Source: Acidobacteriota bacterium
GTDB lineage: Bacteria > Acidobacteriota > UBA890 > WLXD01
Reading direction: 5' to 3'
DNA: 64,000 nt
Assembly: GCA_965205505.1 (NCBI GenBank)
Contig: CBDBHB010000006.1
Location: 160,001-224,000, forward strand
Shown here: positions 29,215-46,339 of the stretch, one piece after another
Position numbering within the stretch: the first letter of the stretch is position 1
Layout: each line of letters starts with the position of its first letter
Notes under the pieces: generated by a model
What the model saw: only the letters and a program-made list of their open reading frames with translations
Database searches by the model: none
Told to the model about the DNA's origin: nothing
Translations under genes and position numbers: made by a program

Positions 29215-29518
29215 ATGGCTGCCTACATGATCGGATTCGGGCGTATCGATGACCCGGAGCGCTTCGGCAAGTACCTGGAGGCAGTCCCGGCAACGGTGAT
29301 GAGCTTCGGAGGGGAGGTCCTCGGAATCGAGGATCCGGCCGAGGTGCTCGAGGGCACCGCGCCCTACCCGCGGGTCGTGTTGTTGCGCTTCCCGTCGAAG
29401 GAGGACGCGCGGGCGTGGAAGAGCTCGCCGGAGTACCAGGACATCGTGGAGCACCGGCTCGCTTCATCCGGAGCACGTGCTTTATCTCGTGGACGAGTTC
29501 GTGATGCCGACCGACTGA
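29215..29518 (+). pseudogene. DUF1330 protein with a probable +1 frameshift near 29469
   Basis: MAAYMI, VLEG, RVVLLRFPS and SPEYQ; the natural-looking end EHVLYLVDE is in another frame. Confidence 0.65.
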
Positions 29519-29522
29519 GCTC

Positions 29523-29550
29523 CTAGCAGGCCTGCTAGCACCCCTGCTAG
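29523..29550. repeat. CTAG-terminated repeat remnants
   Basis: Perfect palindrome CTAGCAGGCCTGCTAG followed by CACCCCTGCTAG. Confidence 0.6.
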
Positions 29551-29948
29551 ACGTCGAGAGTCCGCAGCGGCCGCACTTGCTGGATGCGCTCGAAGTCGGC
29601 ATCGTCGTGTAGCAGAATGCCATCGGCGTCGAGCACCTGCTGCGCGATGAAGCAGTCGACGGCCGAGCGGGGGGTGACGCCGGCCCTGCGGCAGTCGAAG
29701 TAGATCCGCGCCGCGTCGCGGTGCGTGTCCCATCCGCGACGCGCGGTGAGCGTGCGCTGGGTCGAAACGTAGAGGTCGAGCAGCTGCCACTCGGTTTCGT
29801 CGGACGCTCCCTGCAGCAACTCCTGACAGCAAACCTCAGGGATCCAGTATGGAGTGCCGCGGGACTCCATCTGTTGCATAGCGAGAACGGCGGGGCGTTG
29901 GTCATTCATAACGTAGGCGATCAACACTGATGTGTCGATGACGATCAC
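29547..29948 (-). CDS. vapC: VapC/PIN-domain ribonuclease toxin with no adjacent antitoxin
   Basis: IDTSVLI, QELLQG, DCFIA and HDDADF acidic PIN residues. Confidence 0.85.
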   Translation of the reverse strand: MIVIDTSVLIAYVMNDQRPAVLAMQQMESRGTPYWIPEVCCQELLQGASDETEWQLLDLYVSTQRTLTARRGWDTHRDAARIYFDCRRAGVTPRSAVDCFIAQQVLDADGILLHDDADFERIQQVRPLRTLDV

Positions 29949-30055
29949 GGCCTGCTAGATGAGATGAGAAGGCCAACCTCCTGAACGCAGTAGCCTGACG
30001 GCTCTGCAAACGTTTCTTCAAACGTAACGGGCTCGAAGCCCAAGGAGGTTGGCCG

Positions 30056-31102
30056 ATGAGGAGTGTAACGATTGGACTGGACGTAAGCGACCGGTACAGC
30101 CGTATGTGCGTGCTCGACAGTAAGGGCAGGGTGATGGAGGAAGGGCGGGTGAGGACGAGCCCGGAGGGGCTGGCGAGGCGGTTCGGGTGCGAGGAGCCCG
30201 CTCGAGTAGTGCTGGAGGTTGGAACGCACTCGCCGTGGATGAGTGAGCAGTTGAAGCAACTGGGTCATGAGGTGCTGGTGGCTAACCCGAGGCGGCTGAA
30301 GCTGATCTATGGCGAGCACGACAAGACCGACCGGTTGGATGCCGAGCACCTGGCACGAGTGGGCAGAATGGACCCAAAGCTGCTTAAGACGGTGCAGCAT
30401 CGAGGCAGACAAGCGCGAGCGGATCTAGCCGTGATTCGGAGCCGAGATGCTCTGGTAAAGAGCTGCACGCAGTTGGTGAGCCATGTGCGTGGTGCGGTCA
30501 AGTCGGCCGGTTGTCGTATTCCCAGGTGCTCGACGCCGGCGTTCGCGCGCACCGCGCCAGAGCACATACCGGAGCGGCTCAAGGGAGCGCTCGAGCCGGT
30601 GCTTGAAACGATCGCCATGCTGACGGGCAACATCCAGCAATACGAGCGTCAGATCGTGCAGCTGTGCCAGGGGCGATACCCGGAGACACAGCAGCTCCAG
30701 CAAGTGGCCGGGGTCGGAGCTCTGACCGCACTGGCGTATGTGCTGACGCTCGAGGAGCCGGAGCGGTTCAATACCTCCAGAGCCGTGGGCCCGTACCTGG
30801 GACTGAGACCGAAGAAACGGCAGTCGGGGGACAAGGACCCTGCGCTACGAATAACCAAGGCGGGCGACAAAATGCTCCGACGCCTGTTGGTGGGCTCGGC
30901 GCATTACATCCTGGGCCCCTTCGGGCCCGATACTGAGCTCAGACGCTGGGGGCTCAAGCTGGCCGGACGCGGTGGTCCTCATGGCAACAAAAAGGCAGCA
31001 GTTGCTGTCGCCCGTAAGCTCGCCGTTGTGCTGCACCGACTGTGGCTGAGTGGAGACGAGTACGAACCGTTGCGCGCACCTGTAGAGGTTTCAGCAGCAT
31101 GA
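30056..31102 (+). CDS. IS110-family recombinase/transposase
   Basis: RuvC-like DEDD residues (GLD, LE, KTDRLD), GVG HhH, RQSG serine loop and AVARKL. Confidence 0.95.
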   Translation: MRSVTIGLDVSDRYSRMCVLDSKGRVMEEGRVRTSPEGLARRFGCEEPARVVLEVGTHSPWMSEQLKQLGHEVLVANPRRLKLIYGEHDKTDRLDAEHLARVGRMDPKLLKTVQHRGRQARADLAVIRSRDALVKSCTQLVSHVRGAVKSAGCRIPRCSTPAFARTAPEHIPERLKGALEPVLETIAMLTGNIQQYERQIVQLCQGRYPETQQLQQVAGVGALTALAYVLTLEEPERFNTSRAVGPYLGLRPKKRQSGDKDPALRITKAGDKMLRRLLVGSAHYILGPFGPDTELRRWGLKLAGRGGPHGNKKAAVAVARKLAVVLHRLWLSGDEYEPLRAPVEVSAA

Positions 31103-31345
31103 ACTAACCCGCAACCAGGAGGTCGGTAGGGCGACGCGACCCAACGGTTATCGATCTGACCGCCCGGTCCGGGCGACTGCGAAGGTCACTACGAGCTTCG
31201 AGCTCGGCAGCTAGATTGCAGCGCCTCGAATCGGGACGGACCCCAGAATGCACCGGACGACCTGAATCCTCGTCCACCAGAGTGCGAATAGGAGCATGGC
31301 GTGCAGATCGATTCTTCGCTGGCCACCACATTGCCCTTGACCGAA
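31103..31345 (+). ncRNA. Predicted bridge/seek RNA of the IS110 element
   Basis: Stem GGCGACTGCGA/TTGCAGCGCC encloses AGGTCACTA, hairpin CGAGC-TTCGA-GCTCG and GCTAG, which match the flanks. A second loop resembles the element ends. Confidence 0.7.
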
Positions 31346-31357
31346 CTAGGCCTTCTC

Positions 31358-32758
31358 TTAGAAGTGGCCTAACGCCTGGCGCAGCGCGGTGTCGATTCGC
31401 TCGTCGTCGCCTGCGAGCAACGTGCGCACGTCGAGGACGAGGCGATCGGCGACCACGCGGCCTACCAGGGCGGGCTCGGTGCCCAGCAAGCGGCGCACCA
31501 ACTGGTCGGGGGTTAGCGGCGTAGCAACGGCAATTCCCCACGATGGCAGCGTGGCGTCCGGGGCTGCTCCGCCGCCGACGCGCGATTCGAGCTGCAATAC
31601 CTCGGTGTTGACGCCGTCGATCGCGTCGACCAGCGCCGCCAGGGACTCGGCGCGCGCCTGTAACCGTGAGGGTTCCTGGCGAAGCATCGCCAAGGTCGGT
31701 ATGGCGTCGGATCGGCCCGCCAAGTAGTCGATCAGCGTTGCCTCGAGGGCCAGGAATGTCACCTTGTCGAGTCGTAGCGCCCGGTACAATGGGTTCGCGC
31801 GGGCACGCTCGACAGCTTCAGGCCGACCGGCAATGAGGCCCGCTTGCGGACCACCGAGCAGCTTGTCGCCTGAGAAAGTCACCAGATCGACGCCGGTGGC
31901 GAGGCGCTGACCGACGGTCGGATCGCCGACTCCGACCACCCCGAGGTCGACGAGGTTGCCGCTCCCGAGATCCTCCACCACCGGCACGCCAGTCTCGCGT
32001 CCCAAAGCGACCAACTGCTCGAGCGGCACGCTCTCGGTAAAGCCTACGACACGATAGTTACTCGGATGCACAGCCAACAGCAGCCCGGTCTCGGAGCCAA
32101 TTGCCTGGCGGAAATCCTCGATACGCGTACGGTTCGTGGTGCCCACTTCGCGCAGACGGCAAAAACCCTTCTCCATTACCTCCGGGATGCGAAACGAGCC
32201 GCCGATCTCGACCAACTGGCCACGCGATACCACCACCTCGCGCCCCTGAGCGAAGGTGTTGAGGACGAGCAGTACGGCGGCGGCGTTGTTGTTCACCACC
32301 GCCACGTCTACACCAGGCAGCAAGCGCTCGAGCAAGCTGGCCACGGGGCGATCGCGCCCGCCGCGCGAACCGCCCGACAGGTCGTACTCGAGGTTCAGGT
32401 AGGCGGTTGCCAGGTCTGCGACGCGGGCGGCGGCAGCTGCGCTCCAGGGCGATCGACCCAGGTTGGTGTGCACGACGACGCCGGTACCATTCACCACCCG
32501 CCGCAAGCGCGTTCGCAGCATTGCTGCGCCCGTTTGCATCACGTCGTCGGCGACCGAGCCGAGCAGCACACCGAGCTCACCGCCGTCGAGGTCGCCGGCC
32601 AAGATCTCGTTTCTCAGGCGATCGAGCAACGCGGCCGCGACCTGGCGGGCGAATCCCCGGCTCCAACCCTCTGCGGCAATACGACGTCGTACCTCCTCGT
32701 CCTCCAGAACCGCGTTCATGCTCGGCAGACGACGAAGCAGCGCTTCAATTGGGCTCAT
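31358..32758 (-). CDS. selA: L-seryl-tRNA(Sec) selenium transferase
   Basis: VVHTNLGR, NLEYDL, VEIGGSFRIP, EVGTTNRT, HPSNY, DLGSG and FSGDKLLGGPQAG. Confidence 0.95.
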   Translation of the reverse strand: MSPIEALLRRLPSMNAVLEDEEVRRRIAAEGWSRGFARQVAAALLDRLRNEILAGDLDGGELGVLLGSVADDVMQTGAAMLRTRLRRVVNGTGVVVHTNLGRSPWSAAAAARVADLATAYLNLEYDLSGGSRGGRDRPVASLLERLLPGVDVAVVNNNAAAVLLVLNTFAQGREVVVSRGQLVEIGGSFRIPEVMEKGFCRLREVGTTNRTRIEDFRQAIGSETGLLLAVHPSNYRVVGFTESVPLEQLVALGRETGVPVVEDLGSGNLVDLGVVGVGDPTVGQRLATGVDLVTFSGDKLLGGPQAGLIAGRPEAVERARANPLYRALRLDKVTFLALEATLIDYLAGRSDAIPTLAMLRQEPSRLQARAESLAALVDAIDGVNTEVLQLESRVGGGAAPDATLPSWGIAVATPLTPDQLVRRLLGTEPALVGRVVADRLVLDVRTLLAGDDERIDTALRQALGHF

Positions 32759-32920
32759 TGGATCCGTTCGAACTACGCTTGGAGCTCGCAGGCCCGGCAC
32801 CGTGCCGGGGAAACTCAAGTTCAGCTCGCTGCAGTCCATCTACAAATCTGCCCGCGGGCTGGTAGCATCGTAGCGTGCAGCGTCGGCACGATGGGATTGA
32901 ATCCCGGCTCAGGGTGACGA

Positions 32921-33295
32921 ATGTCGGAGGAAATCAGAAAACTGCTCCTCGAAAGCCTCGATGAAGAGAGCCTGCGGCTGCTCTTCCCGGATCGCTTCAG
33001 CGAGCCTACCCGAATCAGCCTCATGTACGCGCCGCTGCAAGGCGAGGAGGCGGAGCGCGAGCGCGAGTTGACCGCGCAAGCAGCCGAGTTCGAAGTCACT
33101 ACCGACGTGCGCGACGTGGACGATGAGCCTCGTCACCGGGCCACCTTCACTCTCGATCAGATCGAGCCGTTGTTTCAGCTCTTTCAGCTGATCGGCGAGG
33201 ACCCTTCAAGAGAGACCTACGCGCAGTTCAACGGGCGCCGACTGCCGATGACGATGGAGCTCTGGCTACCGCTTCTATGGGCAATGCGCTTCTAG
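32921..33295 (+). CDS. Hypothetical protein
   Basis: Plausible ORF divergent from selA; C-terminal NGRRLP..ELWLPL; no family recognised. Confidence 0.6.
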   Translation: MSEEIRKLLLESLDEESLRLLFPDRFSEPTRISLMYAPLQGEEAERERELTAQAAEFEVTTDVRDVDDEPRHRATFTLDQIEPLFQLFQLIGEDPSRETYAQFNGRRLPMTMELWLPLLWAMRF

Positions 33296-33371
33296 CAGGG
33301 TGCTGAGCAGTGGTGCAACTCCCGTTCCTCGCGGCCCGCGGCCGGCGCGACCGGTATCACACCACCGCAGT

Positions 33372-33400
33372 TTGACAGCCCACCGGGCAACGGATAGAAA
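33372..33400 (+). promoter_or_regulatory. Putative sigma70 promoter of the nuo operon
   Basis: TTGACA-N17-TAGAAA. Confidence 0.55.
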
Positions 33401-33454
33401 TGACCTCGCCCGCGCATCGGCGGGCGCAGCGACACAACCCCGGATCAGGGCTGT

Positions 33455-33811
33455 ATGGTCGTCTACCTTCCGATAGCGATTTTTCTGGCGGTCGCGATCG
33501 TCTTCGCGGTGCTCCCGCTCATCGTGGGTCGCTTCGTGCGGCCGACTCCGCCCGCAAGCGAGGGGAAGCTGGCTCCCTACGAATGCGGCGTCGAGCCCAT
33601 CCGTGACGCTCACAAACGCTTCCCGATCCGCTTCTACATCGTGGCGATGCTTTTCCTCGTCTTCGACGTCGAAACCGTGTTCATGTTCCCGTGGGCCATA
33701 CGATATCGGGCCTTGGCGTTGTTCGGGTTCATCGAAATGCTCATCTTCTTGGCGATCTTGATCCTGGGCTACGTTTACGCCTGGAAACGCGGGGCACTCG
33801 AATGGGTCTAG
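33455..33811 (+). CDS. nuoA: NADH-quinone oxidoreductase subunit A
   Basis: YECG, FLVFDVE and GALEW. Confidence 0.95.
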
Positions 33812-34281
33812 TCGAGCATAAGCTCCCGGACAACGTCCTGACCACGACCGTCGATAGCATCATCAACTGGGGTCGCAAGTCGGCGATCTGGCCGCTTACC
33901 TTCGGCCTCGCGTGCTGCGCCATCGAAATGATCGTCACGACTTGCTCGCGTTTCGACATGGCACGTTTCGGCGCGGAGGTATTCCGCGCCACACCGCGCC
34001 AAGCCGATCTCATGATCGTCGCCGGCACGGTGACATTGAAGATGGCTCCTGTCATCAAGCGACTCTACGATCAGATGCCAGACCCGAAATGGGTGATGTC
34101 GATGGGATCGTGTGCTACTTGCGGCGGGCCCTATCCGACCTACAGCGTGCTCCAGGGGGTCGATCGAATTGTTCCGGTCGATGTGTACGTGCCCGGTTGC
34201 CCGCCGCGTCCGGAAGCCCTGCTCTACGGCCTATTGCGGCTGCAGGACAAGATCGACGAAATGAAGGTGGTGCGGAAGTAG
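33802..34281 (+). CDS. nuoB: NADH-quinone oxidoreductase subunit B
   Basis: GLACCAIEM and VPGCPPRPE. Confidence 0.95.
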
Positions 34282-34312
34282 ACCGCAACCAGCCGACCCG
34301 AGACCTGACTCG

Positions 34313-35140
34313 ATGGCAGACGAACCGCTCGACACCGACAAGACTGATGAGCCGCAGGCTCAGCCGGTCGAAGGCGAGTCCACTGAGGCTCAGTCAGCGG
34401 GGTCGGAAAAGGCGGTCGAGGCAGTCGAGCCACAGCCTGCGTCGGCAGAGGCAGACACGGCAGAGCCGGAACCCGAGCCCGAGCCCGAGCCACATCCGGT
34501 GGTGGCAGCGCTCACGGCTCGCTTCGGCGAAAAGATCACCGACGAGGGCGCCGACAAGCTCGGGACGCCGATCGCGCGCGTCGACGCCGGCGACCTCACC
34601 GAGGTATTGAACTGGCTGCGCGACGACGAGGCGATGGACTTCAACTACCTGTCGAGCGTCACGGCGATCGACTGGACCGATCGCGTTCCCCGCTTCGACG
34701 TGGTGTTCCATGTCTACTCCCTACCGAAGAATCACCGGCTGACCGTGAAGACCGGCTGCGCGGACGGCGAGGGGGTGCCTAGCGCGGTCGACGTGTGGCC
34801 GGCGGCCAATTGGTTGGAGCGCGAGACATACGACCTTTACGGCATCGAGTTTCTCGGCCACCCGGACCTACGCCGCATCTTCATGCCAGAGGACTGGGAG
34901 GGCTTCCCTCTACGCAAGGATTATCCCCTCGAAGGACCCAACCTCGAACTGCTGACCCGTCAGCAAGCGGCGTTTCGTGGGGGTCGCTTCGACCGCATCC
35001 GGGGCGAGTACGAGATCAACGAGCAGGAGCGCGAGATGGCTGGTCCCGGCGTTGTCGGGGCCCTGTGGACACCGCAGCCCGACGAGCCCCCCGACCCCGA
35101 GCCTGACGCAGCGCCAGGCGACGAACCCGGGTCACACTGA
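34313..35140 (+). CDS. nuoC: NADH-quinone oxidoreductase subunit C with acidic/Pro-rich terminal extensions
   Basis: WLERETYDLYG, GHPDLRRI and PLRKDYP. Confidence 0.9.
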   Translation: MADEPLDTDKTDEPQAQPVEGESTEAQSAGSEKAVEAVEPQPASAEADTAEPEPEPEPEPHPVVAALTARFGEKITDEGADKLGTPIARVDAGDLTEVLNWLRDDEAMDFNYLSSVTAIDWTDRVPRFDVVFHVYSLPKNHRLTVKTGCADGEGVPSAVDVWPAANWLERETYDLYGIEFLGHPDLRRIFMPEDWEGFPLRKDYPLEGPNLELLTRQQAAFRGGRFDRIRGEYEINEQEREMAGPGVVGALWTPQPDEPPDPEPDAAPGDEPGSH

Positions 35141-35143
35141 GCC

Positions 35144-36244
35144 ATGCTGGAAACGAAGGAGTTCGAGCTCAACATGGGTCCCCAGCACCCGTCTACGCAC
35201 GGCGTGTTGCGACTGGTGCTGTATCTCGATGGGGAGACCATCGTCGACATCGAGACCGTCATGGGGTACCTGCATCGCGGTACCGAGAAGCTCTGCGAGA
35301 CACGCAACTACTACCAGAACGTGCCGTTCACCGACCGCACCGACTACCTGGCGGCGCCCTACAACAACCTGGGGTACGTCGAAACCGTCGAGCGCCTCGG
35401 GGGCTGGGAGGTATCGGAGCGCGCCCTCTACGCCCGTCTCGCAATTGTCGAGCTAAGTCGCATCGCCAGCCATCTCTTCTGGCTGGCGACCCACGCGCTC
35501 GATATTGGCGCGCAAACGATGCTCTTCTGGTGTACGCGCGAGCGCGAGGTGATTCTCGATTTCTTCGAGGCTGCGCTGGGAGACCGCCTGACCACTTCGG
35601 CGTTTCGCCCCGGCGGGCTGCGCCGCGACCTCCCCGAAGGTTGGACCGATGCGGTGCTCAACTTCTGCAGCAGCTTTCCGCAGCGCATCGAGGAATACGA
35701 AACGTTGCTGAGCGCCAACCGGATTTGGCTCGAGCGCACCGTCGGCGTCGGGGTAATCAGCGGCGAAGACGCCGCTGCGCTCGGACTCTCGGGGCCAATG
35801 ATTCGTGGCTCCGGAGTCGACTACGATATCCGCAAAGCACTGCCCTACGGCGGCTACGACCAGGTGGACTTTGATGTGCCGGTGTTCCCCGACGGGGACT
35901 CTTACGCGCGCTATCTCGTGCGCATGGAAGAGATGCGGCAGTCGGTGCGCATAGTCCAGCAAGCGCTCGCGAAGTTGCCCGAAGGGCCGATCACCGCGAA
36001 GGTGCCCAAGTCGATGCGGATCAAGGATTCGGTAGAGGCGTACCACATCGTCGAGAGCCCGCGTGGCGAGCTCGGCTACTACATCATCGGTGGCAACGGC
36101 GACACGCCCTACAAGTGCAAGATCCGGGCACCCAGCTTCTGCAACCTGCAGGCGATTGCTCCTCTGAGCAAGGGCCACCTGATCGCCGATGTCGTCACCA
36201 TCATCGGAAGCGTCGATATCGTGCTCGGAGACGTCGACCGATGA
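35144..36244 (+). CDS. nuoD: NADH-quinone oxidoreductase subunit D
   Basis: NMGPQHPSTHGVLR, GYLHRG and DIVLGDVDR. Confidence 0.95.
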   Translation: MLETKEFELNMGPQHPSTHGVLRLVLYLDGETIVDIETVMGYLHRGTEKLCETRNYYQNVPFTDRTDYLAAPYNNLGYVETVERLGGWEVSERALYARLAIVELSRIASHLFWLATHALDIGAQTMLFWCTREREVILDFFEAALGDRLTTSAFRPGGLRRDLPEGWTDAVLNFCSSFPQRIEEYETLLSANRIWLERTVGVGVISGEDAAALGLSGPMIRGSGVDYDIRKALPYGGYDQVDFDVPVFPDGDSYARYLVRMEEMRQSVRIVQQALAKLPEGPITAKVPKSMRIKDSVEAYHIVESPRGELGYYIIGGNGDTPYKCKIRAPSFCNLQAIAPLSKGHLIADVVTIIGSVDIVLGDVDR

Positions 36245-37275
36245 GCGACTTCGTGATCGTCAACGTGCTCATCCCGCTCTTCCAGATCGGTGTCTTGCTG
36301 GGGATCCTCGGCCTGGCAACGGGCTACATCGTTCTTGCCGAGCGCAAGATTCTGGCCTTTATCCAGAGTCGCCTGGGGCCGATGCGGGTGGGGCCCCACG
36401 GACTCTTGCAGCCCATCGCCGACGTAGTCAAGTTGCTGCTCAAGGAAGACTTGATCCCCAGCGGGGTAAACAAGGCGATATTCCTGATCTCGCCGATCAT
36501 CGTGGTGGTCGCGGCCTTCACTACCTTGGCACTGGTGCCGTTCGGCGAAGGGATCACGCTTTTCGGATACCACATCCCGGGCGTGATCGCCGACGTCAAT
36601 GTCGGCATCCTGCTAGTTTTCGGGATCAGCGGCCTGGCCACTTACGGCGTCATCCTCGGCGGTTGGTCGAGCAACTCGAAGTACCCACTGCTGGGAGCGC
36701 TACGCGCCGCCGCACAGATGGTGTCGTACGAGATAGCGCTGACCTTTGCCGTGATATCGGGGTTAATGGTCGCCGGTACGCTGTCGATGGTGGGCATCGT
36801 TGAAGCACAGCGCGACATGGGGGTCTGGTTCGTGTTCGTGCAGCCGCTGGCCTGGGGAATCTTCACGATCGCCATGGTGGCCGAGACCAACCGAGCCCCG
36901 TTCGACATGGCGGAGGCCGATTCGGAGCTCGTCGCCGGGTTCTTCACCGAGTACTCCGGAATGCGTTGGGCGCTTTTCTTCCTTGGCGAGTACACGGCGA
37001 TGCTGGTGATGGCAGCGGCCAACGTGACGCTCTTCTGGGGCGGCTGGCTGCGACCGTTCCCGAGTGTCGAGGCGCTCGCCTTCCTCGATCTGGTCCCCAG
37101 CGGTGCCTGGTTCATTCTCAAGGTCGCCACGTTCCTGTTCGTCTACATCTGGATCCGCGGCACCTTCCCACGCTACCGCTACGATCAGCTGATGCGGCTG
37201 AACTGGAAGTCCCTTATCCCGCTGGCAATCGCAAATCTGCTCGTAACCGGGCTTGTCATACTTCTGGTAGGCTGA
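36241..37275 (+). CDS. nuoH: NADH-quinone oxidoreductase subunit H
   Basis: ERK..Q.RLGP, AETNRAPFD and PRYRYDQLM. Confidence 0.95.
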   Translation: MSDFVIVNVLIPLFQIGVLLGILGLATGYIVLAERKILAFIQSRLGPMRVGPHGLLQPIADVVKLLLKEDLIPSGVNKAIFLISPIIVVVAAFTTLALVPFGEGITLFGYHIPGVIADVNVGILLVFGISGLATYGVILGGWSSNSKYPLLGALRAAAQMVSYEIALTFAVISGLMVAGTLSMVGIVEAQRDMGVWFVFVQPLAWGIFTIAMVAETNRAPFDMAEADSELVAGFFTEYSGMRWALFFLGEYTAMLVMAAANVTLFWGGWLRPFPSVEALAFLDLVPSGAWFILKVATFLFVYIWIRGTFPRYRYDQLMRLNWKSLIPLAIANLLVTGLVILLVG

Positions 37276-37763
37276 TGCCCGCTCACGATTCGTCACAGGC
37301 GGCAACCATGTCCTCGGCACCCAAGAAGAGCCTCCTGAGTAGCTTCCTGCTGGTGGAACTGCTCAAGGGAATGTGGCTCACGCTCAAGTACACGTTCCGC
37401 CCCAAGGTCACGGTGCAGTATCCGCTGGAGCGCGAGTCGGTCCATCCGAATTACCGCGGCATCCTGCGTGTCGACGAGTCCACCTGCATCGCCTGCTATC
37501 TGTGCGAGAAGATTTGCCCGGACAACTGCATCGTGCTCGACGGTGAGCGCGGCTACGTCAAGGGCAAGGGTGGTAAGTACGCCACCTTCTTCTACATCGA
37601 CCACGGGCGCTGTCTGTTCTGCGGCCTGTGCGAAGAGATTTGCCCGGTCGATTCGATCTACCACAGCAACGAGTTCGAGGCCGCGGTCTACAACCGCGCG
37701 GACTCGATTCACGATCTTCGCATCCTCGACAGCGGCCACCACATCGTGCACTACGAGCGTTAG
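37275..37763 (+). CDS. nuoI: NADH-quinone oxidoreductase subunit I
   Basis: Two CxxCxxCxxxCP motifs and TVQYP (alternative start at 37308). Confidence 0.95.
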   Translation: MPAHDSSQAATMSSAPKKSLLSSFLLVELLKGMWLTLKYTFRPKVTVQYPLERESVHPNYRGILRVDESTCIACYLCEKICPDNCIVLDGERGYVKGKGGKYATFFYIDHGRCLFCGLCEEICPVDSIYHSNEFEAAVYNRADSIHDLRILDSGHHIVHYER

Positions 37764-37771
37764 CCTGCCGT

Positions 37772-38287
37772 ATGGAAAGCATCGCCTTCTATATCATCGC
37801 CTCGATCGTGATCGTGAGCGCCCTGCTCATGGTCATGAGCCGCCAGTTGGTGCACTCCATCGTCTACATGGTGGTGTCGTTCATAGGCGTAGGCGCGCTG
37901 TTCATTCTGTTGCAGGCGGAGTTCGTGGCCGCGGTACAGATCTTGGTTTATGCCGGCGGCATCGTGGTGCTGTTCTTGTTCGTGGTCATGCTGGTGAACC
38001 TCAACGAGGTCAACGAGGGTGAGTATCTGCACCGGCAGTGGATGCCAGCCGGAGCGATGTTGTTGGTCTTGGTAGTGCAGATCGGCTACTTGCTCTGGGG
38101 CGGTGCCGGCGCGCTTACGGTAGCGCCCGAGCAGGCCGAGACCATTCTACGCGCCGTCGAACAGGGCAACACCGAGACGATCGGGATGACGCTCTACACC
38201 GACTATCTGTTGCCCTTCGAGATCGCATCGATGTTGCTGCTGGTGGCGATGATCGGCGCAATCTACTTGGCTCAGAAGCGAGTCTGA
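37772..38287 (+). CDS. nuoJ: NADH-quinone oxidoreductase subunit J
   Basis: QILVYAGGIVVLFLFVVML and PFEIAS. Confidence 0.95.
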   Translation: MESIAFYIIASIVIVSALLMVMSRQLVHSIVYMVVSFIGVGALFILLQAEFVAAVQILVYAGGIVVLFLFVVMLVNLNEVNEGEYLHRQWMPAGAMLLVLVVQIGYLLWGGAGALTVAPEQAETILRAVEQGNTETIGMTLYTDYLLPFEIASMLLLVAMIGAIYLAQKRV

Positions 38288-38288
38288 C

Positions 38289-38597
38289 GTGGGTACGCTG
38301 GGGCTAGGCCACTACTTGCTGCTGTCGGCGGTGCTGTTCGGCATCGGCGTGATCGGCGTACTCGCACGCCGCAACGTCATCATGGTGTTGATGTGCCTCG
38401 AGCTGATCTTCAATGCCGCCAACATCAACCTGGTGGCCGTGGCCCGCTACCGACCGGATCTCGCCGGGCAGATCTTCACGATCTTCACGATCACCGTCGC
38501 CGCCGCCGAGGCGGCGATCGGGCTGGGCCTGGTGATCGCGATGTTCCGCAACGCGCAGACGGTGAACGTCGACGACGTACACCTGCTGGAGGGATAG
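38289..38597 (+). CDS. nuoK: NADH-quinone oxidoreductase subunit K
   Basis: RRN, ELIFNAAN and VAAAEAAIGL. Confidence 0.95.
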   Translation: MGTLGLGHYLLLSAVLFGIGVIGVLARRNVIMVLMCLELIFNAANINLVAVARYRPDLAGQIFTIFTITVAAAEAAIGLGLVIAMFRNAQTVNVDDVHLLEG

Positions 38598-38604
38598 CGG
38601 CGCC

Positions 38605-40824
38605 GTGATCGAGTACTTCTGGCTCATCCCGCTTCTGCCACTTGCCGGCATGCTCGTTAACGGGCTGCTGGGGTCGCGTTTCATCCGCTCCGAGATAATC
38701 ACCGGCAGCCTTGCCAGCGTGTGCATGCTGCTGGCGTTCATCATCGGCGCCGGCTCGTTCCTCGGCCTCGCCGGTATGGAGCCCGCAGACCGCCACGTGG
38801 AGGTGGTCCTGTACGACTGGATAGACGCCTCGTGGGGCCACATGCACGACAACGACGCCGGGGTCGACGCGGCCCGGTTCGTGGTGCCCTTCGGTTTCCA
38901 GTTCGACCCGCTGTCGGCCCTCATGGTGCTGGTGATCACCGGGGTCGGCTTCTTGATCCATATCTACGCCATCGGATACATGGCGCATGATCCGCCCGAC
39001 CCGGGGTTCTACAGGTTCTTCACCTACCTGAACCTGTTCGCCGCCTTCATGCTGGTGCTCGTGCTGGGCAACTCCTACGCCATGATGTTCATCGGTTGGG
39101 AGGGCGTCGGGCTGTGCTCCTACTTGCTGATCGGCTACTACTACACCAAGAAGTCGGCCGGCGACGCTGCCAAGAAGGCGTTCGTGGTGAACCGCGTCGG
39201 CGATGCCGCTTTCCTGCTCGGCATGTTCACCATCTTCTTCACCTTCGGCACGCTCGACTACGACGACGTCTTCGAGCTCGCCTCCGCCAACTACGAGGTC
39301 GGGGCCGGGGTGATCACCTTCATCACCCTGATGCTGTTCATCGGCGCCACCGGCAAGAGCGCACAAATCCCACTGTTTACGTGGCTGCCTGACGCCATGG
39401 AGGGCCCGACACCGGTGTCGGCCCTGATCCACGCCGCGACGATGGTGACCGCGGGCGTTTACATGGTGGTGCGCTCCAACGTGCTGTTCTCGATGTCGCC
39501 AACGGTCATGACCATCGTGGCGGTCATCGGCGCGCTCACAGCACTATTTGCGGCCTCCATCGCAATGGTCCAGAACGACATCAAACGCGTGCTCGCCTAT
39601 TCCACGATCAGTCAGCTCGGGTACATGTTCCTGGCTTGCGGCGTCGGGGCGTACGCGGTCGGTGTGTTCCACCTGATGACGCACGCCTTCTTCAAGGCGC
39701 TGCTGTTCCTCGCGGCGGGCTCGGTGATGCATGCCCTGAGTGGCGAGCTCGACATGTGGAAGATGGGCAATGTCCGCAAGTACATGCCGGTAACCCACAA
39801 GACGTTCCTGGTAGGTACTCTGGCCATCGCCGGTATCCCGGGGTTGGCGGGCTTCTTCTCCAAGGACGAGGTGTTGTGGTACGCCTGGACCGGTCCCAAC
39901 GGCTCCCCCTGGCTCTGGGCCGTGGGGACGCTGGTCGCCGGCATGACCGCGTTCTACATGATGCGCATGCTGCTGGTGACGTTCTACGGGGAGTCGCGCA
40001 TGGACGAGCACGTCGAGGCGCACGCCCACGAGAGCTCGCGCCTGATCACCGTGCCGCTGGTAGCCCTGGCGGTACTAGCGGTCGTCGGTGGCTACGTGGG
40101 AATCCCTGCCAACCTGCAGGTCGGCCCGCTCGGAGCCTTGCACGACAGCATCGATATCGGGCGCTGGCTCGAGCCGATCACCGGTGGCCACGGCGAAGCC
40201 GATCACGGTGACTCTGCCGAAGTAGCCGAACACGCGGCGGCGATGGCGAATGCCGAGACACAAGTACTCGGAACGCTCGACGGCGACGGCCGCATCGTTG
40301 CCGCCAGTGCGGTGCTGGCCACCGAGGCATCGGCCGCCCAGGTGGCTGCGGAGGACGCGGAGGATCACACGAGGCTCGAGTGGATCTTGATGCTGACCTC
40401 TGTGGCGGTGGCGCTGGCGGGCATGGGGATTGCCTACCGGACGTACGGAGCCGGCGTGAGCCAGGAGCCGCTAGCTCGCTTCTCCGGGATCCACCGAACG
40501 CTGTGGAACAAGTACTGGGTCGACGAGCTCTATGACGCGCTGTTCGTCAACCGCACGAAGGACCTCGGGACCGGCCTGTGGGTGCTCGACGACGCAGTTG
40601 TCGACGGCATCGTCAACGGTGTCGCCGAGTCTACGAAACAGGCTGCAACTGCGGCGACCGAGTTCGACGATCGCGTCGTCGACGGCGCGGTCAACGGAGT
40701 CGGAAACACGTTCTGGGCAGGTTCGTGGATCTTCCGCACCCTGCAAACCGGTTACGTACAGAACTACGCGCTGGTCATCGCCCTCGGGCTGTTCGTGCTG
40801 GTCAGCGTCTACATGTTCTTGTAG
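38605..40824 (+). CDS. nuoL: NADH-quinone oxidoreductase subunit L
   Basis: KSAQIPL..WLPDAMEGPTPVSALIHAATMV and HAFFKALLF. Confidence 0.95.
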   Translation: MIEYFWLIPLLPLAGMLVNGLLGSRFIRSEIITGSLASVCMLLAFIIGAGSFLGLAGMEPADRHVEVVLYDWIDASWGHMHDNDAGVDAARFVVPFGFQFDPLSALMVLVITGVGFLIHIYAIGYMAHDPPDPGFYRFFTYLNLFAAFMLVLVLGNSYAMMFIGWEGVGLCSYLLIGYYYTKKSAGDAAKKAFVVNRVGDAAFLLGMFTIFFTFGTLDYDDVFELASANYEVGAGVITFITLMLFIGATGKSAQIPLFTWLPDAMEGPTPVSALIHAATMVTAGVYMVVRSNVLFSMSPTVMTIVAVIGALTALFAASIAMVQNDIKRVLAYSTISQLGYMFLACGVGAYAVGVFHLMTHAFFKALLFLAAGSVMHALSGELDMWKMGNVRKYMPVTHKTFLVGTLAIAGIPGLAGFFSKDEVLWYAWTGPNGSPWLWAVGTLVAGMTAFYMMRMLLVTFYGESRMDEHVEAHAHESSRLITVPLVALAVLAVVGGYVGIPANLQVGPLGALHDSIDIGRWLEPITGGHGEADHGDSAEVAEHAAAMANAETQVLGTLDGDGRIVAASAVLATEASAAQVAAEDAEDHTRLEWILMLTSVAVALAGMGIAYRTYGAGVSQEPLARFSGIHRTLWNKYWVDELYDALFVNRTKDLGTGLWVLDDAVVDGIVNGVAESTKQAATAATEFDDRVVDGAVNGVGNTFWAGSWIFRTLQTGYVQNYALVIALGLFVLVSVYMFL

Positions 40825-40838
40825 AGAACGAGGCACCA

Positions 40839-42452
40839 ATGAGCGGAAATCTCCTCACCCTGGTCGTCTTCCTGCCGGCGGTGGGCGCGCTCGCGATCGC
40901 GCTCCTGCTTGGTAAGGAACGCGACAACGCCATCAAGTGGACCGCGAACATCGTCCTGTTCGTCGATTTCCTGCTCTCGTTGCTACTACTACAGGGCTTC
41001 GATTTCGGGACCGCCGAGTTGCAGCACGTAACGCGGTTGCCGTGGATCCCTTCGATCGGTGTGGAGTACTTCACCGGCATCGATGGCATCTCCCTGTGCC
41101 TCATTCTGCTGACGACGCTGCTCGGCTCGATCGCTTGCCTGTCATCGTGGAACTACATCGAGACGCGGAACAAGGAATATTACGCCTACTTGCTGGTCCT
41201 GCAGAGCGGCATGCTGGGCGTGTTCATCGCCTTCGACTTCTTCCTCTTCTATATCTTCTGGGAAGTCATGCTGGTGCCGATGTACTTCCTCATCGGTATC
41301 TGGGGCGACAAGAACCGTCTGTACGCGGCCATCAAGTTTTTCCTGTACACGTTGGCCGGCTCGGTGCTGATGCTGGTCGGTATCCTGGCGCTGTACTTCT
41401 ACAACCACAGCGTCACCGGTGAGTGGACCACCAACATCCTGGCCTACTACCAGCTGTCGGTACCCGCTGACATGCAGTGGTGGGTATTCCTGGGCTTCTT
41501 CCTCGCCTTCGCGATCAAGGTGCCGATGTGGCCCTTCCACACCTGGCTCCCCGACGCCCACGTGCAGGCCCCCACCGCCGCTTCGGTGATCCTGGCGGCC
41601 GTGCTGCTGAAGATGGGCGCCTACGGATTCGTACGCCTGTCGCTGCCGATCATGCCGCAGGCATCGGTGCAGTTCGCGCCGATGATCGCCGTGCTGTCGA
41701 TCATCGCGATCATCTACGGTGCCCTGGTGGCGCTGATGCAAAAGGACTGGAAGAGCCTGGTGGCGTATTCGTCGGTCTCGCACATGGGCTTCATCACGTT
41801 GGGGATCTTCGCCCTCAACCCGATCGGCGTGCAGGGCAGCGTTCTGCAGATGCTCAATCACGGAGTCTCCACCGGTGGGCTGTTCCTGATCGTGGGCTTG
41901 ATGTACGAACGCACGCACACACGAGAGATCGCCGCGTTCTCGGGGCTGGCCAAGGTCATGCCGGTGTTCACGGTGCTGTTCGCCATCATCGCGCTGTCGT
42001 CGATGGGCCTTCCGGGGCTCAACGGCTTCGTCGGCGAGTTCTTGATTCTGATCGGCGCGTTCGAGTGGAACCCGGTTTATGTCTATTGGTCGGTCTGGGG
42101 CATCGTGCTCGCCGCGGCCTACCTGCTGTGGCTCTTCCAACGAGTCATGTTCGGCGAAGTCAAAGACGACAAGATCGCCAACCTCAGCGACCTCAGCATG
42201 CGCGAGGTGGCCACGCTGGTGCCGCTAGTCGTCCTCGCGGTGTGGATGGGGCTGTACCCGACGCCGGTACTCAACACGCTCGAGCCGCCGGTCAACGCCA
42301 TCGTCGAGCGTGTACGACCCGGCTACTTCGAGGGCAGTGGGATTCCGACGCCCGCCTTGCCCAGCCTCGAGGCGCTGCGCATCGCCGACGGAATCGACGA
42401 CCTGGCGCGGATCGACGAGCCCGTTGCTCAGGCGGCGACCGAGGAACGCTAG
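40839..42452 (+). CDS. nuoM: NADH-quinone oxidoreductase subunit M
   Basis: FWEVML, HTWLPDAHVQAPT and AYSSVSHMG. Confidence 0.95.
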   Translation: MSGNLLTLVVFLPAVGALAIALLLGKERDNAIKWTANIVLFVDFLLSLLLLQGFDFGTAELQHVTRLPWIPSIGVEYFTGIDGISLCLILLTTLLGSIACLSSWNYIETRNKEYYAYLLVLQSGMLGVFIAFDFFLFYIFWEVMLVPMYFLIGIWGDKNRLYAAIKFFLYTLAGSVLMLVGILALYFYNHSVTGEWTTNILAYYQLSVPADMQWWVFLGFFLAFAIKVPMWPFHTWLPDAHVQAPTAASVILAAVLLKMGAYGFVRLSLPIMPQASVQFAPMIAVLSIIAIIYGALVALMQKDWKSLVAYSSVSHMGFITLGIFALNPIGVQGSVLQMLNHGVSTGGLFLIVGLMYERTHTREIAAFSGLAKVMPVFTVLFAIIALSSMGLPGLNGFVGEFLILIGAFEWNPVYVYWSVWGIVLAAAYLLWLFQRVMFGEVKDDKIANLSDLSMREVATLVPLVVLAVWMGLYPTPVLNTLEPPVNAIVERVRPGYFEGSGIPTPALPSLEALRIADGIDDLARIDEPVAQAATEER

Positions 42453-42455
42453 GGC

Positions 42456-43928
42456 ATGAACAGCTTCCCGATTTCGACCTCCGACCTGGCGTCGCTGAAC
42501 GCCGAGATAACCCTGACGATCGGATCGCTCGTCGTGTTGGTGTGGGGTGCCTGCGCGGCTCGAACACGGTCTACTGGGCGGATGTTCGCGTGGGTGACGC
42601 TGCTCACGGTGCTCGGCGCTCTCGCCGGGGTTGTCTTCGGGATATCGCCGCAGATCGAGCGGGGCGTTACCGCGGCGTTCTCCGGTCAGCTAGCCGTCGA
42701 CGCCTTCGGGAGCTTCTTCGCGGTGCTTTTTCTTGTAACCGCGGCCCTCACCATTGCCGCCTCGGCCCGATTCTTGGAAGACGAGGACGCACACCTTCCC
42801 GAGTACTACTTCTTCATGCTCGTAGCGCTCGTCGGCATGATGATCATGGCACGCGGCGCCGACCTGATCAGCATCTTTGTGGGGCTCGAGCTGCAGGCGT
42901 TGTCGGTCTACGTGCTGGTTGGCTACCTCAAGAAAGATAAGCGCTCGAACGAGGGAGGCCTGAAGTACTTCATCCTTGGCGGCCTGTCCTCGGGCATTTT
43001 CATCTATGCGCTCTCGCTGATCTACGCCGTCGTCGGGACGACGAGCCTCGCGGCAATCGGCGCCTCCGTGGCAAACGGCAACCTGGCAGGCGATCCGATC
43101 CTGCTGCTGGGCCTGATCCTGTTGATCGTCTCGCTGGGCTTCAAAGTCGCCGCGGTTCCTTTCCACCTGTGGGCGCCAGACGCTTACACGGGCGCCGCTA
43201 CCCCGGTCACCCTGTTTATCTCGGTAGCCTCCAAAGCGGCGGCGTTCGCCATGATGATCCGTATCCTGTTCGTGGCTTTTTCGCCAATGACAGCGTCGTG
43301 GACATCGTTGCTGGCACTGTTGGCCGCCGTCACGATGACGTTTGGCAACGTCGCCGCGTTATCGCAGAACAACGTCAAGCGGATGTTTGCCTACTCGAGC
43401 GTCGCCCACGCGGGATACGCGCTGGTCGGGGTGGCGGCGGGCACTTCGTACGGCATCGCCGCCACGATGTACTACCTCTTCGCCTACACGTTCATGAACG
43501 TGGGGGCCTGGTCGATGGTGATCATGCTGCGCCGCAACGGGCTCGCCGGCGAGAGCGTTGACGACCTCAACGGGCTGGTGCACCGGTCGGGTACCGCAAC
43601 TGCGGCCATGCTGATCTTCCTGCTGTCGTTGGGAGGGATTCCGCCGACGATCGGCTTCCTCGGCAAGTGGTACGTGTTCGGTGCCGCCATCGACGCCGGC
43701 TATGGCTGGCTGGCGGTTGTCGGTGCGATCAACGCCGCCATCTCGCTCTTCTACTACCTGCGGATCGCCAAGGCGATGCTCATGAGCGAGGCCGACGCCG
43801 AGGTAACGCTTGCCCGGTCGATTCCGTTGCAGATGGCGCTCGGTGTCTGTGCCTCGATCACCGTGGCGGGCATCATCTGGGCCACGCCGATGGTGAACTG
43901 GGTACAGCGCGCCGCCCTTCAATTCTGA
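42456..43928 (+). CDS. nuoN: NADH-quinone oxidoreductase subunit N
   Basis: EGGLKYF, FKVAAVPFHLWAPD and AYSSVAHAGY. Confidence 0.95.
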   Translation: MNSFPISTSDLASLNAEITLTIGSLVVLVWGACAARTRSTGRMFAWVTLLTVLGALAGVVFGISPQIERGVTAAFSGQLAVDAFGSFFAVLFLVTAALTIAASARFLEDEDAHLPEYYFFMLVALVGMMIMARGADLISIFVGLELQALSVYVLVGYLKKDKRSNEGGLKYFILGGLSSGIFIYALSLIYAVVGTTSLAAIGASVANGNLAGDPILLLGLILLIVSLGFKVAAVPFHLWAPDAYTGAATPVTLFISVASKAAAFAMMIRILFVAFSPMTASWTSLLALLAAVTMTFGNVAALSQNNVKRMFAYSSVAHAGYALVGVAAGTSYGIAATMYYLFAYTFMNVGAWSMVIMLRRNGLAGESVDDLNGLVHRSGTATAAMLIFLLSLGGIPPTIGFLGKWYVFGAAIDAGYGWLAVVGAINAAISLFYYLRIAKAMLMSEADAEVTLARSIPLQMALGVCASITVAGIIWATPMVNWVQRAALQF

Positions 43929-44574: not shown

Positions 44575-46056
44575 ATGATCGCCCTGACCCCGGCTCGGCT
44601 TATCGACGTTGACGAGCTGGACGATCGCGGGCTGCAGCGTACCGCCGACGCCCTCGAGCTTGGCGACGACCGGCTGGTGACCGATCGCCACCGCTACCGG
44701 TATCAAGCACCCGACGGGCTCCCCGATCGGAGCGCGCGCACGCTGCATGTGGACGACTTTTCCTTGATCGCCCACGTGTGCGATATCAGCGGCATCGACT
44801 ACTACCCGAGCAGGGCATTCGTGCGTCAACGTGACGGCGATCTCGTCGCCGGGACGTTCTCGCCGATCGACGGGTACGCCGACTATCTGGATCAACAGCT
44901 CGGGTTGGGTCAGTCGCAGTACGTACGCGCGGCTCCAGCACCTGGTGCACCGGCCTACGCGGCGTTCGAGGCACTTCTCGGCGACGACGGCGCGCAGCAG
45001 CGGATCGCTACCGCAGCTCGAGAGGCACACGACAACTTCTGGATCCATCCATATATGGGGTTGGAGGCAGCCTGGGAGCTCGGAAGGCGGCTCGCCGAGC
45101 GCACTGAGCGCCGGGTCCGCGTGCTAGGGCCGCCGCCGCGCCTCACCGAGCTCGCTAACAACAAGGTGTGGTTCAGATCGGCCGTCGAGCGGGTCCTCGG
45201 GCGGGAGTGGACGCTCGACTCATACACTGGGACGTGCACCAGGGAGATCACCGAAGACCTGGCAAGGGTGGCGGCTGACGCACCTCGCGTGGCCATCAAG
45301 CTCGCCGATAGCGCCTCCGGCATGGGTACCGAGATCGTCGAGGGGGCAGATGTCCGGAATCGATCACAGGAGTCGCTCGAGGCGTTCGTCGCCGACTGGC
45401 TCGCCAGCCACGGCTGGCAGGCGGAGTCGCCACCTGTCTCGGTGGAGCCATGGCGAACGGATGTTGTCGGATCGCCCAGCATCCAACTTTGGATACCCCC
45501 ACTCGACGGCGGACCGCCGCTGTTGGAGGGAATCTTCGATCAACGTTTCTACCCCACACAAGAACAGGTGTTTCAAGGCAGCGTGCCCAGCCAGTTGCCG
45601 CACACCTTACAGCGACGCATCGGTGCCGCGGGTCTGCTCCTGGGACGGCTATTTCAGCTCCTTAACTACGTGGGGCGCTGTTCGTTCGACACCATCCTGT
45701 GCGGCTCGAACGTCTCGAATGCCACCATCAAGTTCACTGAGTGCAATGGGCGGTGGGGCGGGACCAGCACCCCCATGAGCCTGATGAATCGACTGTTCGG
45801 CGACTATCGCCGTCAGCCCTACGTAGCCGGCGTGTTGCACTACGATCGACTCAAGGGCATCGGCGTCGACGAGTTCGTACGACAGCTCGCGGATGTACTG
45901 TTCGATGCTCGTACGGGTAGCGGATGGGGCATCGTGTTGAACGTGGGATGCCTGCGGCCGGCCGGCAAGCTCGATGTGATCAGCCTCGGTGAGTCGCCGG
46001 CGATTGCGGAACGGCGGCAGGGCGAGTTCCTCGACATCGTGGCATCGCGCTTCTAG
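44575..46056 (+). CDS. ATP-grasp-like ligase (pre-ATP-grasp/PGM1-related), uncharacterised
   Basis: NNK, AIKL..SASG.G, SPSIQ, GRCSFD and ECNGRWGG (ExNxR); RBS GGAGG. Confidence 0.65.
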   Translation: MIALTPARLIDVDELDDRGLQRTADALELGDDRLVTDRHRYRYQAPDGLPDRSARTLHVDDFSLIAHVCDISGIDYYPSRAFVRQRDGDLVAGTFSPIDGYADYLDQQLGLGQSQYVRAAPAPGAPAYAAFEALLGDDGAQQRIATAAREAHDNFWIHPYMGLEAAWELGRRLAERTERRVRVLGPPPRLTELANNKVWFRSAVERVLGREWTLDSYTGTCTREITEDLARVAADAPRVAIKLADSASGMGTEIVEGADVRNRSQESLEAFVADWLASHGWQAESPPVSVEPWRTDVVGSPSIQLWIPPLDGGPPLLEGIFDQRFYPTQEQVFQGSVPSQLPHTLQRRIGAAGLLLGRLFQLLNYVGRCSFDTILCGSNVSNATIKFTECNGRWGGTSTPMSLMNRLFGDYRRQPYVAGVLHYDRLKGIGVDEFVRQLADVLFDARTGSGWGIVLNVGCLRPAGKLDVISLGESPAIAERRQGEFLDIVASRF

Positions 46057-46330
46057 TGGCCTGTAACAGATGATCGTTGCGTATCGTGGTGGCGAAATGG
46101 GTCCGGATGCCAGGCGCGACGACGAGACGATGTTTGCCCATCTTGGAGGAGGAGCAACGCCGCAGACGGGCCGATTTCGCCGCCATCCTGCGGACAGATG
46201 GGCAGTTGCGGGCGATATCGGCGTTGCGCCTCGTCGACGATGCCCAATGCATCGCCTTCCTCCCCGCGCCTTGATCTCACCCGCAAATCCCATCTGCGAT
46301 ATGCAACGATCATCTGTTACAGGCCACTAG
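46053..46330. mobile_element. Complete ~270-bp MITE bounded by CTAG
   Basis: Terminal inverted repeats CTAGTGGCCTGTAACAGATGATCGTTGC / GCAACGATCATCTGTTACAGGCCACTAG. Confidence 0.9.
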
Positions 46331-46339
46331 TGTCCTGAC

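Follow-up and report, generated by a model that had tools for sequence, protein, structure and literature searches.

A potentially active IS1111-group insertion sequence with a very probable two-loop guide RNA, of a family that inserts at the ends of a resident miniature repeat

The window analysed here, that is, the whole 64,000-nucleotide stretch from positions 160,001 to 224,000 of contig CBDBHB010000006.1 of an Acidobacteriota bacterium, contains at 29959–31364 on the + strand a 1406-bp insertion sequence (IS) of the IS1111 group of the IS110 family. With high confidence, we regard it as a potentially active element with a gene for a DEDD recombinase and, in the non-coding region 3′ of that gene, a two-loop guide RNA of the type called seekRNA or bridge RNA. 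Two lines of evidence carry this reading: the full-length copies of the element in the genome all stand at one 10-bp site, and in a series of distinct related elements the two loop strands of the putative RNA change along with the flanking DNA.

The left flank of the element (29951–29958) is CCTGCTAG and the right flank (31365–31370) is TGGCCT. The dinucleotide AG closes the left flank (29957–29958) and recurs at the end of the element (31363–31364), and excising 29959–31364 restores CCTGCTAGTGGCCT. Coordinates, AG core at both junctions and reconstructed target are all, on re-reading, as the original prediction (an earlier interpretation based on the letters of the window) had given them. Because the AG core is ambiguous, the element can alternatively be drawn as 29957–31362, by IS1111 convention. 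Its main parts are as follows, a slash marking the point of insertion here and below.

29955–29958, + strand: left target half CTAG, the last two bases of which (AG) are the putative crossover core, also present in the right end of the element
29964–29974, + strand: left subterminal inverted repeat ATGAGAAGGCC, after a 7-bp extension AGATGAG (29957–29963)
30056–31102, + strand: transposase/recombinase gene (tnp), 348 amino acids, with a DEDD RuvC-like N-terminal domain, a PF02371 C-terminal domain and a GLRPKKRQSG motif
31337–31342, + strand: TTGACC, a −35-like hexamer facing outward; CTTGAC precedes the right repeat in most homologous non-coding regions
31349–31359, + strand: right subterminal inverted repeat GGCCTTCTC(T)T, followed by a 3-bp extension AGA (31360–31362) and the core AG (31363–31364)
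31365–31370, + strand: right target half TGGCCT; in the 27-copy flank logo, conservation falls beyond +6

A DEDD domain together with PF02371 places the transposase in the IS110 family: the open reading frame (ORF) matches PF01548 (DEDD_Tnp_IS110) at 1.4e-17 and 64.3 bits (cutoff 29), PF02371 at 5.4e-17 and 62.4 bits (cutoff 21.3) and the NCBIfam model NF033542, "IS110 family RNA-guided transposase", at 202.8 bits (cutoff 140), and residues D9, E54, D92, D95 and G258 are invariant across 16 homologues. The features of the IS1111 group are likewise present. The 11-bp subterminal repeats ATGAGAAGGCC and GGCCTTCTCAT match at 10 of 11 positions in the window copy and perfectly in 21 of the 27 full-length copies, position 31358 being A in these 21 and T in the other six, the window copy included. 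If the AG core is counted with the left end, a 7-bp extension (AGATGAG) stands on the left and a 3-bp one (AGA) on the right, a pattern found in most homologues (the left extension is 6 or 8 bp in a few), and the ATGAGRAGGCC repeat with an AGATGGG-type extension also occurs in 18 homologous loci. The non-coding DNA amounts to 97 bp upstream of tnp (29959–30055) and to 262 bp downstream (31103–31364), the 348-residue protein carries a GL-P----S(t)G-type motif, and insertion is specific in site and orientation and occurs without target duplication, the 2-bp core being all that flank and end have in common. The earlier assignment to the RNA-guided IS110/IS1111 recombinases is thus borne out by the three profile matches and by a layout that is the published IS1111 seekRNA pattern (PMC11187229).

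There are 33 BLAST matches to the element in the genome, 27 of them full-length with 98.6–100% identity; in two DNA-type runs the word depth is 174–187 within the element and 5–8 in the flanks (∼25–35×), fitting the copy number. All 27 full-length copies stand in one orientation at CTAG/TGGCCT, and copies at unrelated sites, which would have told against the original prediction, are absent among them. The flank logo reads:

Left flank (n = 27): −4, C 25; −3, T 26; −2, A 27; −1, G 27
Right flank (n = 27): +1, T 27; +2, G 27; +3, G 26 and A 1; +4, C 27; +5, C 27; +6, T 27; lower from +7

AG/TG.CCT flanks are thus found at 27 of 27 copies and exact TGGCCT at 26; CTAG is exact in 25, or in 26 if an extra ATGAG at the left end of one copy is counted as part of the IS (its true flank then being GGCTAG). 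The conserved span CTAG/TGGCCT coincides exactly with the span of two proposed guides in the non-coding region downstream of tnp, which lie in the following structure.

31172–31182, + strand: 5′ strand of the outer stem, GGCGACTGCGA (helix 1: nine pairs, six with compensatory changes, 97.2% of cells paired)
31183–31191, + strand: proposed 5′ guide AGGUCACUA, a complement of the top strand T-AG-TGGCCT that has a single G-U, opposite +3; invariant in the 27 copies
31192–31206, + strand: inner hairpin of the target loop (helix 2: four pairs, three with compensatory changes), variable in length and sequence among homologues
31210–31214, + strand: proposed 3′ guide GCUAG (GCTAG in DNA), identical to the top strand (G)CT-AG and hence a partner of the bottom one; the core forms its end, immediately ahead of the stem
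31215–31225, + strand: 3′ strand of the outer stem, AUUGCAGCGCC, pairing with 31172–31182 (via 31216–31225)

The complementarity that had first drawn attention to this region is readily seen: AGGTCACTA at 31183–31191 is complementary to TAGTGGCCT with one G-U pair, which makes it the longest target match in the non-coding region, and GCTAG is present at 31210–31214. The two guides overlap at TAG, the top-strand complement lying 5′, and the region accordingly has what characterizes a seekRNA or bridge RNA, namely a folded non-coding region in which two segments match opposite strands of the target and overlap where insertion takes place. Both the outer stem (31172–31182/31216–31225) and the inner hairpin (31192–31206), as originally proposed, are in the minimum-energy fold of 31160–31240 (−42.2 kcal/mol, z = −3.27, 0 of 200 shuffles as good); the entire 262-nt non-coding region folds marginally better than its shuffles (z = −1.68, 13/200). 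The segment 31172–31225 is invariant in all 27 copies, and 58 other columns vary. One copy (G000:C9:68585–69991) stands at CTAG/TGACCT, a site perfectly complementary to the guide; the 10-mer with TGACCT is free at only two places in the genome (one more is occupied), versus 109 for the site with the G-U.

To compare the guides with other targets, we searched 401 genomes from the phylum for homologues (E up to 1e-50) and found them in 22, this one included; four same-genus genomes held no homologue of the element. Among the 29 loci examined, 18 plus the window had ATGAGRAGGCC on both sides, and collapsing three same-genome duplicates left 16 distinct elements; the 11 loci that were dropped did not have the subterminal repeat on both sides, mostly because of contig ends or divergence, and include L065 from the unpublished genome G166. 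The 16 elements have 43–57% amino acid identity to the window protein and differing flanks, and all of them share one scaffold: GGYGACTGCG-guide-hairpin-guide (ending in the core)-AT(T/G)GCAGCRCC, followed downstream by ATGCACC-hairpin-AGAGTGCG-AT(A/G)GAAG. The stems of this scaffold comprise 17 pairs with 95.2% of cells paired, 10 of them with compensatory changes; no measure was reached in any of 500 shuffles, and slid controls were 25–46% paired.

Guide–flank covariation, to which the original prediction had pointed as a check, holds across these 16 elements on both strands, and we take it as natural reprogramming of the guides among related elements. With the register fixed by the scaffold, the 3′ loop strand scores a mean of 4.25 against its own left flank and 0.60 against non-cognate flanks, and the 5′ loop strand a mean of 7.84 against its own right flank and 4.12 against non-cognate ones; for each strand, 0 of 20,000 permutations reached the observed sum. 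It should be noted that the elements are related, so that their independence is overstated, yet their targets differ widely. The significance of the guide match comes from the other copies and the homologues, not from the window alone. A free-register covariation search requiring pairing of the core was also tried and rejected: its ranks were mixed, pairing with the core is lacking in several guides, and the non-cognate scores were inflated by duplicates from one genome.

Beyond this genome, the closest homologue (G011:C1:3908161–3911885; loci L041 and L033) has 62–68% amino acid identity and the same order of parts, and lies in two pieces ∼2.7 kb apart, as if interrupted by another insertion. 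A separate scan of genome contigs with the window protein returned one related locus at 43% identity, and in a plasmid collection the nearest annotated plasmid-borne IS110-family genes had at most 36% identity, with no named close relative.

A second conserved module, CCCAnC-ATGCACC-hairpin-AGAGTGCG-N-AT(A/G)GAAG, lies downstream of the target loop at 31241–31294. Its parts, and a possible stem enclosing both loops, are listed here.

31150–31158, + strand: 5′ strand of a possible closing stem, ATCGATCTG, which forms 9 bp with 31304–31312 and would bracket a ∼163-nt two-loop RNA (11/500 shuffles as good)
31241–31247, + strand: candidate 5′ donor guide CCCCAGA, opposite the left-end start AG-ATGAG
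31248–31286, + strand: stem-loop of the donor module, AUGCAC ... GUGCG, around a hairpin at 31255–31275 (helix 3: four pairs, 100% of cells paired, one compensatory change)
31288–31294, + strand: candidate 3′ donor guide AUAGGAG, which resembles the right end plus core, (A/T)TAGA-AG, at 6 of 7 positions, with one G opposite A

In 14 of the 16 elements the candidate 3′ donor guide is identical to the right end plus core, and it covaries with it at two positions. At the third base of the guide, the choice between A and G follows the right extension (AGA or GGA) in 16/16, and in L074, which has an AA core, it reads AUAGAAA and so matches that core. For the 5′ donor guide covariation is partial, with CUCA/TGAG in L069, CCUUA/TAAGG in L062, CCCC/GGGG in L067 and UCCA/TGGA in L079; in the window element and in L076 a C stands opposite an A. 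The closing stem can be drawn in all 16 elements and is individually weak, at most 11 of 500 shuffles matching it in only four of them; a closed RNA of ∼163 nt is suggested at most.

These features can be assembled into a mechanism. By analogy with the IS1111 and IS110 systems that have been tested, the recombinase would bind the guide RNA. The target loop, between the stem strands 31172–31182 and 31215–31225, would read both strands of CTAG/TGGCCT, 31183–31191 pairing with the top strand T-AG-TGGCCT and 31210–31214 with the bottom strand of (G)CT-AG, and the two loop strands would jointly set the 10-bp site and the orientation of insertion. The donor module (31241–31294) would read the joined ends of the element (…TAGA-AG-ATGAG…), and strands would be exchanged at the common AG core, for which reason no target duplication would arise. 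In a circular form, GAAGAT would span the end-to-end junction 18 nt downstream of TTGACC (31337–31342), and the two may make up a junction promoter as in the IS1111 family (PMC11187229); a promoter scan of the linear element found no promoter-like site. What the sequence data show is the anatomy, the copy number, the specificity for the site, the conservation of the RNA fold and the covariation of guides with flanks and ends; the action of the region as a recombinase-bound RNA, a circular intermediate carrying a junction promoter and present activity of the element we infer from the family. The scan also bears on a hairpin, GGGCTCGAAGCCC, at 30028–30042, just upstream of the ribosome-binding site, which resembles the inner hairpin of the target loop (31192–31206) and on the minus strand is the sole terminator-like site.

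Several observations weigh against an RNA-guided, potentially active element. The 9-nt match taken alone is within chance, since shuffling the non-coding region gave an equal or better core-covering run, on either strand, in 232 of 2000 cases. The left guide has just 4–5 nt, and there is no selection at position −5 (10 G, 9 T, 7 A, 1 C; n = 27). The main guide forms a G-U with the abundant site and is perfect only for the rare TGACCT site, and the candidate 5′ donor guide matches the window element weakly. In the covariation test, the weak elements on the 3′ strand are L074 (score 0), L066 and L072 (score 1 each), and those on the 5′ strand are L069 (equalled by eight of 15 non-cognate targets), L079 and L078. 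An Rfam scan of 29500–31800 with E up to 1 matched no family. As to activity, 17 of the 27 full-length copies have frameshifts; the four same-genus genomes, in all of which the 3′ end of selA (the gene to the right of the window copy) was found in a differing neighbourhood, offer no clean empty site; and the contigs of two metatranscriptome runs that cover 30139–31370 and 30648–31357 cannot, being contigs, reveal transcription, strand or ends.

Some of these points would be expected if the recombinase protein alone read CTAGTGGCCT, the target 10-mer, and the downstream region served in end recognition or as a promoter or terminator. The likeness to the target would then be a coincidence, in keeping with the chance level of the window match and the shortness of the left guide, or would come from the resemblance of AGGCCA on the bottom strand of the target to AAGGCCA of the subterminal repeat; indeed, the guide-containing stretch GAAGGTCA (31181–31188) also pairs with the subterminal repeats. 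We consider this very improbable: the 16 elements with different targets change both loop strands along with their flanks on a fixed scaffold, a result that none of the permutations equalled, whereas their subterminal repeats are nearly constant, and published IS1111 members require the RNA for transposition (PMC11187229). Even less probable, by a little, is that what works in transposition is not a transcript of the conserved fold but its DNA, either single-stranded or as a site to which protein binds. Compensatory changes point to a folded single strand and do not separate RNA from DNA, and the RNA libraries that hold the element may contain DNA; however, in four members of the IS1111 group and one of the IS110 group, RNA from the homologous region co-purifies with the transposase (PMC11187229), and the G-U pairs of the stems lie on the tnp strand and would be C-A mismatches on the opposite one.

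The family might also be a fossil, its copies having spread in the past and the present elements, the window copy included, being immobile. Besides the frameshifts, this is favoured by the lack of a circle junction in the contigs of four runs (X1, X3, X16 and X17) and by the lack of the element in the same-genus genomes. Contigs, however, drop rare forms, so that the missing junction says little, and the copies are close to identical, 10 of them keep the full frame and all of them the guide region, and 109 perfect sites are still unoccupied; on balance we hold immobility to be improbable, if clearly less so than the two readings above. Because one 4-bp deletion in tnp (30321–30324) is common to 12 of the 27 copies at different loci, and a 1-bp deletion at 30465 to five, defective copies must have multiplied, which fits mobilisation in trans. 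The open 348-residue frame is kept in those 10 copies, and the window element can be called intact, as it originally was, in that its ORF is open and D9, E54, D92, D95 and G258, invariant among the homologues, are kept; its activity is a conjecture from these features. One further copy (G000:C8:891218–892373) is internally deleted: positions 1–698 and 1061–1406 of the element are parted by 116 bp, so that both ends and the whole RNA region are kept and the middle of the gene is lost.

A ∼279-bp family that resembles miniature inverted-repeat transposable elements (MITEs) has the 10-mer CTAGTGGCCT as the outer end of its terminal inverted repeat, as have related repeats, and therefore the element accumulates beside them. 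Uninterrupted, the 10-mer occurs 109 times in the genome, versus ∼13 occurrences expected from base composition (GC 0.643), and 60 of the 109 go on as CTAGTGGCCTGTAACAG. We counted 143 repeat ends (a 24-nt string with up to four mismatches), of which 106 follow CTAG and 13 follow the right end of the element; 38 inverted pairs of such ends are 150–650 bp apart, most commonly 250–300 bp. An example of the MITE-like repeat is at 46053–46331 of the window (∼279 bp, with ∼34-bp terminal inverted repeats and CTAG before each). An autonomous partner was not seen, in that no inverted pair of repeat ends in the genome is 0.7–6 kb apart. Other copies of the element adjoin variant repeat ends (TGGCCTGAGTCAG…, TGGCCTGTAACAG and others), and a few, among them the window copy, adjoin unique DNA. 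The claim that the recombinase is aimed at the termini of the host's miniature repeats consequently holds for the family, with 13 of 143 repeat ends carrying the IS, and does not hold for the window copy, which lies beside the 3′ end of selA. A tandemly duplicated target 10-mer, CTAGTGGCCTCTAGTGGCCT, is found at G000:C8:5177–5196 and G000:C9:2703763–2703782, at the far end of a MITE whose opposite end holds the element; the two loci have common flanks and may be one duplicated segment.

In the window, the element sits between a PIN-domain gene (29547–29948, − strand) and selA (31358–32839, − strand), at a site with the 3′ end of selA on its right and no canonical MITE end. The selA frame stops at a TAA within the right end of the element (31358–31372), gaining one residue (…GHF); without the element it would stop at the TAG of the target, and in the closest same-genus genome selA stops eight bases earlier, at CTAG/CGCC. 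The first 13,159 bases of the contig (G000:C6:1–13159) are an inverted copy, 99.69% identical to 29954–43104 of the window, that spans the element together with 5 bp of flank on the left and 11.7 kb on the right, selA included. This contig-start copy has the left neighbour seen in relatives (GGGTTCGGCTTCTAG), and the window arrangement may be the derived one, or the 13-kb duplication may be an assembly artefact. In run X3, a contig from another sample passes through the left flank of the window copy and after ...CTAG continues as TGTCCTGAGTCAGAAATCCGTTGCATA, a variant repeat end, instead of the element, which hints that flanks have been exchanged between copies.

The choice of target by RNA in IS1111 elements was demonstrated in 2024 (PMC11187229), and a bridge RNA is predicted in the right end of 93.0% of IS1111 elements (PMC11208160). 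ISEc11, ISPa11, ISKpn4 and ISPst6 (Siddiquee et al., 2024; PMC11187229) resemble the present element in having a DEDD transposase of 330–350 amino acids, subterminal repeats with 7-bp left and 3-bp right extensions, a long non-coding region 3′ of tnp, a top-strand complement 5′ of a bottom-strand one, the two overlapping where insertion occurs, and insertion that is specific in orientation and leaves no target duplication. Unlike them, the element described here has the target CTAG/TGGCCT and is known from sequence alone; a module matching the donor ends, visible here by covariation, and the layout of a donor-guide stem-loop with a closing stem (∼163 nt) are not described for IS1111 RNAs in the available part of PMC11187229. 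The bridge RNA of IS621, of the IS110 group (Durrant et al., 2024; PMC11208160), similarly has one loop for the target and another for the donor ends, each reading both strands about a common dinucleotide core; in comparison, the RNA here lies 3′ of the gene instead of 5′, the order of guides is reversed, the subterminal repeats are long, and the core is AG.

The kind of element is already known: IS1111 members target terminal repeats of other transposons, repetitive extragenic palindromic (REP) sequences or attC sites. The core of IS621, for its part, is CT. IS4321 and IS5075 are reportedly (Partridge and Hall are said to have described them in 2003) IS1111-group elements with a specific site in the terminal inverted repeat of another transposon. 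Theirs are Tn21-family repeats on plasmids, whereas here the site is CTAG plus the adjacent outermost bases of a ∼279-bp MITE-like repeat in the chromosome. The suggestion of a mobile element parasitising another mobile repeat is therefore upheld in so far as a resident miniature repeat ends in the target 10-mer, and is not new as a theme. ISPpu9, ISPpu10 and ISPa11, also of the IS110 family, use an abundant short chromosomal repeat (REP) as a landing site and have a small RNA gene downstream of tnp (PMC12288879; PMC11187229); here, instead of a REP palindrome, the repeat is of a MITE-like type and has ∼34-bp terminal inverted repeats.

One may go further and read all of this jointly, as a dedicated parasite of MITE ends that inserts between the terminal repeat and CTAG, whose frameshifted copies spread in trans, whose copies may recombine with one another and so reshape the chromosome (the 13-kb inverted duplication is bounded by the element), and whose relatives carry 16 reprogrammed guide sets on one scaffold, with donor guides flanking a conserved GCAC/GUGC stem-loop and a closing stem bracketing ∼163 nt. 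We put this forward tentatively, as a composite that is unlikely to be right, though likelier than immobility of the family.

The element is an ordinary yet well-preserved member of its group, with unusually clean natural evidence, and the understanding of how such elements work is unchanged by it. For annotation of the genome, it accounts for the 27-copy repeat and for its place beside miniature repeats, and it flags the altered 3′ end of selA and the large duplication as products of an insertion sequence. To the field of bridge recombinases, it adds a subfamily with a fixed AG core, a short natural target of 10 bp and a G-U pair tolerated at 26 of 27 sites, and with sixteen relatives in which one scaffold has been reprogrammed by nature; these features could help in choosing orthologues or designing scaffolds.

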